A DNA stretch of 64,000 bases from Escherichia coli (GTDB lineage: Bacteria; Pseudomonadota; Gammaproteobacteria; Enterobacterales; Enterobacteriaceae). This document shows, one piece after another, positions 5,967 to 9,700 of the stretch; position 1 is the first letter of the stretch; each line of letters begins with the position of its first letter. A program made the position numbers and the translations under genes. The notes beneath the pieces are model-generated. The model was not told the origin of the DNA. It did no database searches and worked only from the letters and a program-made list of their open reading frames with translations. The stretch lies in assembly GCF_003790525.1 (NCBI RefSeq), contig NZ_CP033635.1. One strand, 5' to 3'.

Positions 5967-6346
5967 CGCTTCGCCCTCACTCGCCAGAGGATCAGTGCCA
6001 TCAGCAGTAACAACACCACTGGCAGAGCCCACAATACCAGCGTCTGACCCGTTAACGGTGGGTTATAGCGAACAAAATCTCCGTAGCGTTCGGTCATCCA
6101 GCCAATGATTTCGACTTCACTTTTCCCCTCTTCCACCATGCTGTAAACCTGATGGCGCATACTGACCGCCACCGGCGCATTGGATTCCAGTAAGTTCTGA
6201 TTCTGACACTGCGGACAACGTAACTGGCTGGCAATATTTAACGCCTGTTGCTGTTGTTGCGGATTGGCGAATTGCCAGGTGTCTACGACCTGAGCACGCG
6301 CAAAACAGGTAAATAACAGCAGTAGCGTGAGAAGTCCTTTATTCAT
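5963..6346 (-). CDS. nrfF: CcmH-like thiol-disulfide cytochrome c biogenesis protein
   Basis: 127 aa, signal peptide, CPQCQNQ motif. Confidence 0.88.
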
Positions 6347-6391
6347 CGCGCTTCCTCCCCCGCCATCCGCTTAACAATGCGCCCGCAATCA

Positions 6392-8020
6392 TCAACAATC
6401 CTCCCCCCAGATCCAGCGCACACCGCTTTGTACATACAAACGAAAAGCGTAACGATCCGGCCCAGTTTTCTCCCCCATGACCGCATACCAGTCATGGATG
6501 CCGTTCCAGCGAATTGACGGTTCCATCATTTGCTGACGGCGTGCTTCATAAAAACGCCGCTCCGGCGTCAGTTCACCAATACGTTGCTGATGGTCAAACA
6601 GTGCCACTATCGCTTTTTCGCTGGTGTAATTGCCTCTGGCTTGCAGATCGAGACGCTCAAAACGGAAGGCGTATCCTGCCAGCGTCACCTGCTGACCCGG
6701 CTGTAAATTCAGGCTGATCTCCTGACGGCTGACGCTGGAGACCACGATCCCTGCGGCAAATAACAGCACGCCCGCATGCGCCAGCAGCGCCGGAAGCTGC
6801 ACGCGTTTGCCAGAGACAAACGTCGCCAGCACAATCACCACCAGCATCAACAGACCAAACGGTAACGTCGCACGGTTAAAATACGGCGCGCCAACGGAGA
6901 GGCGTCCCCAGCCCAGCAGGCCGTAAATCATCGGATAAAGCGTTCCCACCAGCACGATCAGTAGCACTGCGCAAAACAGCAACAGCGTAGCGAGGATTAA
7001 CATTTCCCGCGATAACCCCGAAAAACGCACCGCCGGGCCACCGTCCCGCGCTCGCCAGCCATACAGAGTCAGAGACGCAAGGCTAATCAGTGCAAACAGG
7101 CTGAACAACGGCACGGCGCGAACGTTATCCAGCGCGAACGCATGAACCGAAACCAGAATGCCAGAACGGACAATTAAGGTGCCCAGCAGCGACAGCATCA
7201 GAGTAACTATCGCCAGTAACAGCGACCAGTGGCGGAAAATCCCCCGCTGGCGTGTCAGGGACAAACTGTGCAGCAGCGCAGTGGCAGAAAGCCAGGGTAA
7301 TAAAGAGGCGTTTTCCACCGGATCCCAGAACCACCAGCCGCCCCAGCCCAGTTCGCAATAGGCCCACCAGGAACCGAGGATGATCCCCGCCGTTAATGCC
7401 CCCCAGCCTGGTAGTGCCCAGCGCCAGCAAATTCGGGCGCAGGTACCATCAAACTCGCCGCGCAGTAAACTCGCCAGCGCCACGCTCGCCGCCACCATCA
7501 AACCGCCGTAGCCGAGATAAAGCAGCGGTGGATGAAAGATAAGACCGGGATGTTGCAGCATCGGATTGAGATCGCGGCCTTCGATTGCTGGCGGAAATAT
7601 CCGCACGAAGGGATCGGACCACAGCACTACAAACAGTAGCAGTGCGGCGAGCATGAGAGATAAAACGGCTAGCGTCAGCGGAAATAGCGGATCGGTTTGC
7701 TGCCGATAATGCCAGGCAAACAGCGCGCTCCAGGCGGAAAGCAGCAGCACCCAAAGCAGCAGCGAACCTTCATGACCGCCCCACACCGCCGCCAGTTTGA
7801 GTTCCCACGACAGCAGGCTGTAGCTATGTTGGGCGACATAAATGACCGAGAAATCGCTGATGAGAAAACAATACGTCAGTACGCCAAAGGCGAGCAGCAG
7901 GAGCGCGAACTGCGCCAGAATGCCGATGCAAGTGAGTCGCATCATGGCAGGCCAGCGCAACCGCACTCCCGCAAAGGCCGTCAACGGGGTCAACACGTTG
8001 ACCCCGAGACTTAACAACAA
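6392..8020 (-). CDS. nrfE: CcmF-like heme lyase (cytochrome c nitrite reductase maturation)
   Basis: Large polytopic protein with WGGWWFWDPVEN heme-handling motif; longest ORF starts with TTG at 8020, in-frame ATG at 7945 is an alternative start. Confidence 0.85.
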   Translation of the reverse strand: MLLSLGVNVLTPLTAFAGVRLRWPAMMRLTCIGILAQFALLLLAFGVLTYCFLISDFSVIYVAQHSYSLLSWELKLAAVWGGHEGSLLLWVLLLSAWSALFAWHYRQQTDPLFPLTLAVLSLMLAALLLFVVLWSDPFVRIFPPAIEGRDLNPMLQHPGLIFHPPLLYLGYGGLMVAASVALASLLRGEFDGTCARICWRWALPGWGALTAGIILGSWWAYCELGWGGWWFWDPVENASLLPWLSATALLHSLSLTRQRGIFRHWSLLLAIVTLMLSLLGTLIVRSGILVSVHAFALDNVRAVPLFSLFALISLASLTLYGWRARDGGPAVRFSGLSREMLILATLLLFCAVLLIVLVGTLYPMIYGLLGWGRLSVGAPYFNRATLPFGLLMLVVIVLATFVSGKRVQLPALLAHAGVLLFAAGIVVSSVSRQEISLNLQPGQQVTLAGYAFRFERLDLQARGNYTSEKAIVALFDHQQRIGELTPERRFYEARRQQMMEPSIRWNGIHDWYAVMGEKTGPDRYAFRLYVQSGVRWIWGEDC

Positions 8021-8075
8021 CGCCAGAAAACCGACTTCAGGAAGGAATACGTCCAGAAACCACCTCTGTTCTGGC

Positions 8076-9032
8076 TTACGCCACCGTTAACTGCCCGGCG
8101 TAGAGAATGAAAAAGCGCAGCATCAACACGCCGACCAGGCTGGCCCCACACGCCGCCAGCACGGCAGGAATGCCGGAACTACGATTCACCCACGGTTTGA
8201 GCAACATTGGCACAATCAACCCCAGCCCGGCGACACCAAGCCAGAACCACCACGTCCAGAAACCGCCGCCCAATGCCGCCACCAGCGCACGCACTTTACC
8301 GTCATCGCCCAGCGCCAGACCGACAAAAAACGCCACCAGCAGGAAGATTTCGCCCCATACCACAGGGATCTCCATACGGTGTACAAAGTGCGCTTCCGTG
8401 GAATGCGGGTTACTGCGTTGGCGTATCGCCATGGCGATCAGCGCCACCGCCGCACCGGACGAGATGCCGGAGAAGAGGAACAGCACCGGCAGGATCGGGT
8501 TATTGAGGAACGGATACGATTTCAGCGCCGATAGCAGAAAGCCGGTATAAGCCCCCAGCAGCACCGCCAGCACCAGCATCAATGTTTCCAGTCCGCGATG
8601 AACGGGCGTCAGCAGGCTCAGAACCTTTTGCACGATCCCCAGCTTCGGCAACCAGCGTTGTTGCAGGGCAAGCAAATCATGTTCAAAGATTTTCGCCAGC
8701 CACAGCACCAGCACCACCATGTAAAGCTGAAACAGCATCACCCCCATCGACATCACCGAGGTAAAACTGTAGTGGAACATCAGCTTCCAGAAGGTCCACG
8801 GTCTTGTCAGGTGGAAGACGAGGATCAACAGACCGAGGATCACCGCGCCAGGTCCGACAATCAGCGTGGTGCGCAGCAACGTACTGTCTGCACCGCCCGC
8901 CTGCGGGTAGAAGCGACGTAACAGCACGGCCAGCGTCACCAGACCGGCAGAAATACCAATCAAAAACAGGTAGATGGCAATCGGCCAGTCCCACACCAGT
9001 GATTCAAAATGAAATGCGGAAGTCTGCGTCAT
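8076..9032 (-). CDS. nrfD: NrfD membrane quinol-oxidising subunit
   Basis: 318 aa polytopic membrane protein; overlaps nrfC by 4 bp. Confidence 0.9.
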   Translation of the reverse strand: MTQTSAFHFESLVWDWPIAIYLFLIGISAGLVTLAVLLRRFYPQAGGADSTLLRTTLIVGPGAVILGLLILVFHLTRPWTFWKLMFHYSFTSVMSMGVMLFQLYMVVLVLWLAKIFEHDLLALQQRWLPKLGIVQKVLSLLTPVHRGLETLMLVLAVLLGAYTGFLLSALKSYPFLNNPILPVLFLFSGISSGAAVALIAMAIRQRSNPHSTEAHFVHRMEIPVVWGEIFLLVAFFVGLALGDDGKVRALVAALGGGFWTWWFWLGVAGLGLIVPMLLKPWVNRSSGIPAVLAACGASLVGVLMLRFFILYAGQLTVA

Positions 9033-9700
9033 TGGCTCACCTCCCCGTATTTAAACGGTACGCGGTACAGCTTCGGTTTGGTTCCCAGCGCCAGCTTGTA
9101 GCGGTAAGTAGGCTTCTGGTGCAGCAGTTGCGAAATCTCACTGTTAGGATCGTCCAGATTGCCAAACGTCAGCGCCTTCGTCGGGCAAGCCTCAACGCAC
9201 GCGGGCAGCTTACCGGCCTGCAAATTGGTCTTACGGCAGAAATCGCATTTGTCCGCTGTCTTCGTGACCGGATGGATAAAGCGCACGCGGTACGGACAGG
9301 CGGCGATGCAGTACTGACAACCGACGCAGAGATCCGGATTTACATCGACAATCCCGCTGGCGGCATCGCGAAAAGACGCACCGGTCGGGCAGACGTCAAC
9401 GCACGGCGCACGATCGCAGTGCTGGCAAGACTTACGGAAGAAGCGATATTTCACATCAGGAAATTCGCCCTGCGGCTCGCTACGAATAATCGTCAGGCGC
9501 GAGACGCCTTCCGGCACCTTGTTCACTTTCCGACAAGCATCCATACAGGCGGTACAGCCGATGCATAACGACTCGTCATGCACCATGCCGTAACGCACAC
9601 CATTGATATTCAACGTTTTCGCCACCACGCGCCCTGCGGTGCCGCTGACGGCGGCCAGCACACCGACGCCGGTGAGAAACTGGCGACGTGACCAGGTCAT
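9029..9700 (-). CDS. nrfC: 4Fe-4S ferredoxin-type subunit NrfC
   Basis: 223 aa with Tat-like N-terminus and four CxxCxxCxxxCP clusters. Confidence 0.9.

Follow-up and report, generated by a model that had tools for sequence, protein, structure and literature searches.

In the 64,000-nt window analysed here, which is from Escherichia coli SMS-3-5 and carries nrfABCDEFG on its minus strand, comparison of sequences indicated that nrfE is most probably translated from a non-canonical CUG codon at 8056-8054, 12 codons 5' of TTG 8020. RefSeq/PGAP already annotates this CTG as the start, and the annotation question is largely settled; some minor use of downstream starts may occur besides the CTG. 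The literature was searched for N-terminal sequence, initiation-site ribosome profiling and mutational data on the nrfE start, which were not found, and for the nrfE start codon or CTG, which returned nothing relevant.

The nrfE product is assigned to the NrfE subfamily of the CcmF/NrfE haem lyase family by family-model cut-offs passed over its full length: NF007691 matched NrfE with 1162 bits (cut-off 394) over residues 2-572 and TIGR00353 with 827 bits (cut-off 569), and Pfam PF01578 and PF16327 are recorded on NrfE homologues. The operon order in the RefSeq annotation is nrfABCD-nrfEFG, with CcmH-like NrfF and the TPR protein NrfG encoded downstream, and is likewise found in Salmonella and Citrobacter. 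After the in-frame TAA at 8089-8087, the nrfE frame on the minus strand reads CGG TGG CGT AAG CCA GAA CAG AGG TGG TTT, then the 12 codons LDVFLPEVGFLA (8056-8021), then TTG 8020. The ORF listing gives 6392..8020, a TTG ORF of 542 aa. Our reading of the strand confirmed the initial annotation in that neither ATG nor GTG precedes TTG 8020 and that the first ATG is at 7945 (ATG ATG CGA, MMRLTCIG); the 4-nt overlaps it gave for nrfB/nrfC, nrfC/nrfD and nrfF/nrfG agree with the RefSeq coordinates. It had further set nrfE apart from this tightly coupled operon by a gap of about 55 nt after nrfD. That distance is correct when measured to TTG 8020, but with the CTG start the gap is only 19 nt, and little remains of the apparent departure from tight coupling.

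The peptide encoded by the LDVFLPEVGFLA codons is conserved in Escherichia, Salmonella, Citrobacter and an Enterobacter sp. and lines up with the M-x-PExG N-terminus of CcmF/NrfE proteins. The amino acids of codons 2-12 are retained in E. albertii, Salmonella, three Citrobacter species and the Enterobacter sp.; three of the 11 codons vary only synonymously, two show conservative replacements, and the stretch as a whole is better conserved than codons 13-45. The TIGR03145 alignment begins at NrfE residue 5 and that of NF007691 at residue 2. A tblastn search of genome contigs with NrfE returned at least 4 close NrfE loci and at least 76 more distant CcmF/NrfE-family loci; the more distant CcmF loci among them were used to survey start positions across the family. 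Among the matches listed, those to CcmF genes start at residues 2-5, and 59 of 80 homologous loci have a PExG motif near the match start; almost all of the 59 have the start codon one or a few codons 5' of this motif. Other species therefore do show clear homology 5' of 8020, the result that the initial annotation had named as speaking against a start at this position, and this homology points to the non-canonical CTG.

The start codons were compared in nine distinct sequences only (eight enteric and one diverged), with those of Salmonella, C. sedlakii and the diverged homologue recovered by exact-protein look-up. CTG is invariant at the 8056 codon in all eight enteric sequences, and at this very position GTG stands in the diverged metagenomic NrfE. 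None of the downstream candidates at 8020, 8017, 7996, 7993, 7960, 7945 and 7942 remains a start codon in all species compared. The sequence of Salmonella and C. werkmanii is TGA TAT CTG, which places an in-frame TGA two codons 5' of the CTG, so that an in-frame initiator 5' of the conserved residues is impossible there other than the CTG itself. Indels 5' of the CTG are not multiples of 3, and the nrfD stop and the CTG are separated by 19, 8, 1 or 30 nt, the first three values being those of E. coli, of Salmonella and Citrobacter, and of C. sedlakii, respectively. A 32-mer spanning the Shine-Dalgarno sequence, the CTG and six codons was found exactly in 5413 of 5421 E. coli records (99.85%), compared with 59.5%, 84% and 96.5% of records for three control 32-mers; this near-invariance, only modestly above one control (96.5%), is taken as supporting evidence, short of decisive.

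The in-frame CTG follows a strong Shine-Dalgarno sequence, GAGGUGGUU, a combination that was overlooked in the initial annotation. The predicted duplex of GAGGUGGUU with the 3' tail of 16S rRNA has an energy of -12.8 kcal/mol, a value reached by 0.44% of all background 20-mers and the third strongest among the 53 annotated starts in the window. For the seven in-frame candidates 3' of the CTG that were scored, the energies range from -2.7 to -7.3 kcal/mol. An equivalent sequence, AAGGUGAU, occurs at the same spacing in Salmonella, Citrobacter and the Enterobacter sp. (-9.7 to -10.2 kcal/mol); in all, conservation of the site extends to four other genera. C. sedlakii lacks the Shine-Dalgarno sequence and has canonical TTG and GTG codons on either side of the CTG, so that the CTG may not be in use in all lineages. 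RNA folding of 8110-8000 gave no distinctive structure around the Shine-Dalgarno sequence and the CTG (-34.6 kcal/mol, z = -1.46).

Table 1 Features of the nrfE locus in the 64,000-nt window.
Feature	Position	Strand	Remark
First in-frame stop 5' of nrfE, TAA, inside nrfD	8087..8089	-	TGA in K-12
nrfD stop codon TAA	8076..8078	-
Shine-Dalgarno sequence GAGGUGGUU	8058..8066	-	GAGG core ends 6 nt before CTG
CTG, most likely nrfE initiation codon	8054..8056	-	RefSeq/PGAP start, 572 aa in intact allele
Codons 2-12, DVFLPEVGFLA, conserved coding sequence	8021..8053	-	PExG motif and start of transmembrane helix 1
TTG, start of maximal canonical ORF	8018..8020	-	Polymorphic Leu codon
GTG, start in K-12 reference annotation	7994..7996	-	b4074, 552 aa
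TTG, start of 540-aa models	7958..7960	-	ENA, Logan, NCBI and UniRef records
First in-frame ATG	7943..7945	-	535-aa model, without Shine-Dalgarno sequence
nrfE frame as present in window, 554 codons from CTG	6392..8056	-	Premature TGA 6394-6392
G6 homopolymer	6403..6408	-	G7 in NC_010498.1, K-12 and closest relatives; 1-nt deletion, frame shifted
Rest of nrfE, 21 residues	6339..6402	-	Readable only with missing G restored

The initial annotation regarded the nrfE start as ambiguous. Among canonical codons the ambiguity is real and public annotations disagree, but neither of the two candidates that it weighed, TTG 8020 and ATG 7945, is supported. RefSeq/PGAP places the start at CTG 8056 (572 aa) both in SMS-3-5 and in a K-12 assembly; this is not independent evidence, because PGAP follows the family model NF007691, which was built from sequences to which this start had already been assigned. 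The reference annotation of K-12 (NC_000913.3, b4074) uses GTG 7996. TTG 8020 would be the first ATG, GTG or TTG past the in-frame stop, is directly followed by a second TTG at 8017 and would give a protein of 560 aa in the intact allele. Nevertheless, E. albertii, Salmonella, C. werkmanii, C. sedlakii and the Enterobacter sp. carry CTG or CTA at this codon, and 432 complete E. coli records (about 8% of genomes), O157:H7 among them, carry CTG, behaviour expected of an ordinary Leu codon. Its Shine-Dalgarno match is weak (-5.7 kcal/mol), a start here would leave 12 conserved codons with the family PExG motif untranslated, and none of the annotations in the best 120 database matches uses it; we consider initiation at TTG 8020 very unlikely. 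Initiation at GTG 7996 or the adjacent TTG 7993 is slightly less so, though still improbable: these codons are conserved in most enteric relatives, but GTG 7996 is replaced by CTG in the Enterobacter sp. and by GCG in the diverged homologue, its Shine-Dalgarno match (-7.1 kcal/mol) lies merely about 2 nt away, and it falls in the middle of transmembrane helix 1, with loss of 20 conserved residues homologous to CcmF N-termini. The chances of the still shorter models, from TTG 7960 (540 aa) or from ATG 7945 or 7942 (535 or 534 aa), appear as slim as those of TTG 8020. The 540-aa model stands in thousands of database entries, a GGGAG motif precedes TTG 7960 (-7.3 kcal/mol), and ATG 7942 is conserved in most relatives. 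Against them, other genera have CAG, CGG, CTG or TCC at the 7960 codon, ATG 7945 is GTG, GTT or ATA elsewhere, ATG 7942 is ACG in the Enterobacter sp., both ATGs are without a Shine-Dalgarno sequence (-2.9 and -2.7 kcal/mol), and all three starts would remove the whole of helix 1. The choice of start thus decides whether the first hydrophobic helix is complete, as the initial annotation had stated. For a start downstream of helix 1, loss of this helix can be claimed and a topology conflict cannot; the idea that topology would be inverted was dropped, as the positively charged loop after helix 1 would stay cytoplasmic either way.

Two explanations involving frameshifts were also considered. Translation could begin at the out-of-frame GTG 8063-8061 and shift by +1 into nrfE before TGA 8039-8037, or, as a variant, a shift at the nrfD stop could yield an NrfD-NrfE fusion. 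This GTG lies exactly 7 nt 5' of the CTG in E. coli, Salmonella, Citrobacter, the Enterobacter sp. and the metagenomic homologue, and the arrangement resembles the +1 frameshifting known generally from prfB in having a Shine-Dalgarno-like GGUG just 5' of a short out-of-frame ORF ending in TGA. Unlike prfB, the junction has no recognisable slippery codon, and it is the nrfE frame that is conserved: the substitutions are synonymous or conservative there but radical (I/S/T) when read in the frame of GTG 8063. The GTG is itself part of the Shine-Dalgarno GGUG, is not preceded by a Shine-Dalgarno sequence (-1.7 kcal/mol) and is absent in C. sedlakii, and in Salmonella and Citrobacter an in-frame TGA bars the way to nrfE after a shift at the nrfD stop. 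Both forms, including a prfB-like programmed +1 frameshift, were rejected and have a negligible probability. A different frameshift affects the 3' end of the gene. The G6 run at 6403-6408, G7 in the reference record NC_010498.1 of the same strain, is the sole difference from that record in 64 kb, and it replaces the last 21 residues, which form the last transmembrane helix, by EDC, so that the C-terminal helix is not intact. There is an even chance that nrfE in this window is a frameshifted pseudogene or a sequencing error, for which the start-site question would have no functional consequence in this copy: the only base that differs cuts the last helix, PGAP labels the same G6 allele 'frameshifted', and the eight closest genomes all have G7. 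On the other side, nrfE is intact in the reference record, the G6 could be a homopolymer assembly error, found in 63 of 5321 records including assemblies of DH5alpha and strain C, and the frameshift has no bearing on where translation starts. In the intact gene the stop is TAA 6341-6339, which gives an 8-nt overlap with nrfF (ATG 6346-6344). The initial annotation overlooked that its 3' limit at 6392 is due to this 1-nt deletion relative to the reference genome, and its nrfE ORF boundaries hinge on one homopolymer call.

With CUG 8056 as the start, a mechanism can be proposed. NrfE is the CcmF-like haem lyase subunit through which NrfEFG joins haem to the CXXCK motif of NrfA. The strong Shine-Dalgarno GAGGUGGUU (8066-8058) would set the 30S subunit on CUG 8056, and ribosomes ending nrfD, the stop of which lies only 19 nt 5' of the CUG, may re-initiate at nrfE; this stop-start spacing is compatible with translational coupling of nrfD and nrfE. 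The product would begin fMet-Asp-Val-Phe-Leu-Pro-Glu-Val-Gly and have a complete first transmembrane helix. The initiator tRNA can read CUG, which gives 1-2% of AUG expression in E. coli reporters (bioRxiv 10.1101/063800; 10.1101/520783); as an initiation codon CUG performs poorly in E. coli, and the initiation machinery discriminates against it (PMC11497404). At about 1-2% of the AUG rate, synthesis of NrfE would probably be low relative to NrfABCD, and the weak CUG together with the strong Shine-Dalgarno sequence would probably hold it below that of these structural proteins. NrfF and NrfG would probably likewise be kept low through coupling to NrfE by the 8- and 4-nt overlaps. It is conceivable, though rather doubtful, that nrfE is among the very few E. 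coli and Salmonella genes in which CUG is the sole physiological start and has been selected across several enteric genera, the CUG and Shine-Dalgarno sequence after the nrfD stop forming a fixed translational valve that would give a low NrfEFG:NrfABCD ratio sensitive to initiation-fidelity factors such as IF3.

The consequences are practical more than conceptual. Three nrfE starts are present in public annotation, giving 572, 552 and 540 aa, and the 552- and 540-aa models, the K-12 reference included, lose part or all of the first transmembrane helix together with the PExG N-terminus, so that topology models, expression constructs and structure predictions of NrfEFG would be misled. If the CTG start is correct, nrfE would offer a clean natural case of conserved CUG initiation in E. 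coli and a handy reporter for initiation fidelity and for the setting of subunit ratios in an operon.

Conserved near-cognate AUU starts are classically known from infC (IF3) and pcnB of E. coli, and autoregulation is experimentally established for infC. nrfE resembles them in having a conserved non-canonical codon on a bona fide gene, with weak initiation presumably tuning expression; the codon is AUU in infC and pcnB and would be CUG in nrfE. CUG-initiated N-terminal proteoforms have been detected in Salmonella Typhimurium (PMC11005335), which demonstrates in vivo use of CUG in an enteric bacterium. Those proteoforms are alternatives beside annotated canonical starts, whereas the CUG of nrfE would be the sole or primary start; the nrf genes are unmentioned in that study (PMC11005335). 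The System I haem lyase CcmF is a paralogue of NrfE with the same family and fold, shares PF01578 and PF16327 with it, and has an M-x-PExG N-terminus followed by a hydrophobic helix. A sequence search of solved structures returned only Thermus CcmF (6zmq_A), which aligned from residue 46 and left the N-terminus uncovered; the C-terminal helix lost in the G6 allele aligns with this chain. Among the matches listed, CcmF genes start at ATG, rarely at GTG or TTG, one codon before PExG. In enteric nrfE, by contrast, the CcmF-type ATG has been lost (now TTC or CTC) and the putative CTG start lies three codons farther upstream.

Public gene models disagree on where nrfE translation starts. RefSeq (PGAP) begins the gene at CTG 8056 in SMS-3-5 and in one K-12 assembly, giving 572 aa, whereas the K-12 MG1655 reference model (b4074, NP_418498.1; NC_000913.3 4291512) begins 20 codons later at GTG 7994-7996, midway through the first hydrophobic helix, giving 552 aa; a 540-aa model from TTG 7960 represents thousands of entries (ENA, Logan, NCBI and UniRef records). 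The initial annotation had weighed TTG 8020, the start of the mechanical ORF (6392..8020, 542 aa), against ATG 7945. Its sequence facts are correct: on the minus strand an in-frame TAA lies at 8089-8087, ATG and GTG are absent between it and TTG 8020, 55 nt separate TTG 8020 from the nrfD stop, and 7945 is the earliest in-frame ATG. After the TAA, the frame reads CGG TGG CGT AAG CCA GAA CAG AGG TGG TTT CTG GAC GTA TTC CTT CCT GAA GTC GGT TTT CTG GCG and then TTG 8020. The ambiguity was only partly borne out, as coding continues upstream of TTG 8020. None of the best 120 database matches is annotated from TTG 8020, and no discussion of the nrfE start site was found in the literature searched.

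CTG 8056 was tested independently of PGAP. An alignment of nrfD-nrfE junctions covered E. coli (3 strains), E. albertii, Salmonella enterica, Citrobacter werkmanii, Citrobacter sp. FP75, C. sedlakii, Enterobacter sp. BIGb0383 and one diverged metagenomic NrfE. Strong protein conservation starts at the CTG, LDV[FL]LPE[VAI]GFLALLLSLGVN[VL]LTP, and collapses directly 5' of it. Codons 2-12 (synonymous-only variation at 3, conservative replacements at 2) are more conserved than codons 13-45. The CTG is invariant in 8/8 enteric sequences, and the diverged metagenomic homologue has GTG at exactly this codon. Depending on the lineage, 19, 8, 1 or 30 nt separate the nrfD stop from the CTG, differences that are not multiples of three. 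The nrfE frame of Salmonella and C. werkmanii reads TGA TAT CTG, and the conserved residues therefore have no other possible in-frame initiator. A 32-mer that covers the Shine-Dalgarno sequence together with the CTG and six codons has an exact match in 5413/5421 E. coli records, compared with 59.5%, 84% and 96.5% of records for three control 32-mers nearby.

PEVG at NrfE residues 6-9 is the PExG motif of the CcmF/NrfE family, which was found near the match start in 59/80 loci among the matches listed; nearly all of these 59 carry an ATG (occasionally GTG/TTG) one or a few codons upstream of the motif. Profile alignments to NrfE begin at residue 5 (TIGR03145) and residue 2 (NF007691), and tblastn matches to CcmF genes start at residues 2-5 among the matches listed. 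Clear homology, both within the family and across genera, therefore lies upstream of 8020, the very observation that the initial annotation had named as its refutation. A hydropathy scan placed helix 1 at roughly residues 3-31, so that the helix is complete from the CTG and is partly or wholly lost from 7996 onward; the start choice does affect the first transmembrane segment, as the initial annotation had proposed.

For each candidate start, Shine-Dalgarno strength was scored by pairing the preceding 20 nt with the 3' tail of 16S rRNA. The site before CTG 8056 outscored those before TTG 8020 and ATG 7945, the two positions for which the initial annotation had suggested such scoring. It ranks third among 53 annotated window starts (median -7.0), and its score is reached by only 0.44% of all 20-mers on both strands. 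In Salmonella, Citrobacter and Enterobacter sp. the spacing is unchanged but the sequence differs, AAGGUGAU (-9.9 to -10.2), and the GTG-starting metagenomic homologue scores -9.7. C. sedlakii (locus L086, 590-620) is the exception: the nrfD-nrfE spacer is deleted, leaving TAA-C-CTG, and a Shine-Dalgarno sequence was absent from this junction in the same scoring. Its CTG is flanked by canonical codons, an in-frame TTG three codons upstream that overlaps nrfD and a GTG two codons downstream, and this lineage may have shifted to a canonical, purely coupled start. Folding of the nrfD-nrfE junction RNA revealed no unusual structure (z = -1.46).

Coordinates of nrf genes and candidate nrfE starts in the window
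Feature	Position	Strand	Shine-Dalgarno score (kcal/mol)	Remark
nrfD	9032-8076	minus		RefSeq
nrfF	6346-5963	minus		RefSeq
nrfG	5966-5370	minus		RefSeq
CTG	8056	minus	-12.8	GAGGUGGUU; GAGG core 6 nt from codon
TTG	8020	minus	-5.7	
GTG	7996	minus	-7.1	only about 2 nt from codon
TTG	7960	minus	-7.3	
ATG	7945	minus	-2.9	
ATG	7942	minus	-2.7	

No downstream candidate is kept as a start codon in all of the species compared. The position of TTG 8020 is CTG or CTA in five relatives, and is CTG rather than TTG in 432 complete E. coli records, O157:H7 among these. GTG 7996 is replaced by CTG in Enterobacter sp., TTG 7960 by CAG, CGG or CTG and ATG 7945 by GTG, GTT or ATA in other species, and ATG 7942 by ACG in Enterobacter sp. 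Entry by frameshifting from the out-of-frame GTG 8063 was rejected, since this GTG belongs to the Shine-Dalgarno sequence and conservation tracks the nrfE frame; an NrfD-NrfE fusion was likewise rejected, as the TGA in Salmonella blocks it. Shine-Dalgarno-directed initiation at CUG 8056 is the best-supported reading. This conserved, putative CTG start is already in the RefSeq annotation but conflicts with the K-12 reference model. Initiator tRNA can decode CUG (10.1101/520783), and some Salmonella proteoforms are initiated at CUG (PMC11005335). CUG expression in E. coli reporters is ~1-2% of that from AUG (10.1101/063800), and CUG initiation complexes are less stable (PMC11497404). We infer that the Shine-Dalgarno sequence would direct the 30S subunit to CUG 8056, 19 nt past the nrfD stop, with probable assistance from ribosomes terminating on nrfD. 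A plausible purpose would be to keep the haem-lyase module synthesised at a low level compared with NrfABCD; haem attachment to the NrfA CXXCK motif needs NrfEFG (PMC12285233).

At the other end of the gene, nrfE does not normally terminate at the stop at 6392. The window is the reverse complement of NC_010498.1 about 4,581,566-4,645,566 (E. coli SMS-3-5), and BLAST gave one 64,001-column alignment with 0 mismatches and a single 1-nt gap. This sole difference in 64 kb is a run of G6 at 6403-6408 (minus strand); the run is G7 in NC_010498.1, in K-12 and in each of the eight closest complete genomes. The 1-nt deletion converts the NrfE C-terminus to ...WIWGEDC*, and the terminal helix, which aligns with Thermus CcmF chain 6zmq_A, is lost. 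RefSeq orders nrfD, nrfE, nrfF and nrfG, all part of the nrfABCDEFG operon, on the minus strand, with nrfF and nrfG coupled to nrfE through overlaps of 8 and 4 nt; the 4-nt overlaps between neighbouring nrf genes in the initial annotation agree with these coordinates. G6 moves the nrfE stop from the 8-nt nrfF overlap to 45 nt upstream of nrfF, uncoupling the two genes. The missing G may be a private mutation, or else the source from which the window derives may contain a homopolymer error. The G6 71-mer occurs in 63/5321 complete E. coli records, assemblies of DH5alpha and strain C included, and PGAP labels such alleles 'frameshifted' (pseudogenes).

E. coli NrfE-NrfF fusions of 650-665 aa also occur in the protein collection (P0003, P0005, P0013, P0015 and P0022). 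Their origin lies in small deletions or frameshifts near the nrfE stop (6339-6365, the last ~8 codons), through which the ribosome enters the overlapping nrfF frame. Salmonella (S. enterica nrfE-nrfF junction, locus L085, about 2290-2420; P0106) and C. werkmanii carry a palindromic insert between nrfE and nrfF, GCCTGATGGCGCTGCGCTTATCAGGCCTAC ... GCCGGATAAGGCGTTCACGCCGCCATCCGGC, which resembles a REP/BIME element. Because the insert keeps the reading frame open, annotation treats nrfE and nrfF as a single 737-aa protein; NrfE is 575 aa in other Salmonella records. The NrfE of L087 (metagenome contig ERZ27312852 k141_2243; P0028), whose gene has GTG where E. coli has CTG, is a mosaic with a diverged N-terminal third and C-terminal two thirds ~identical to E. 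coli, a pattern that suggests recombination within nrfE. The Shine-Dalgarno duplex of nrfD (upstream, 9033-9052; -16.9 kcal/mol) is the strongest predicted among the 53 annotated window starts, despite the 4-nt overlap of nrfD with nrfC.
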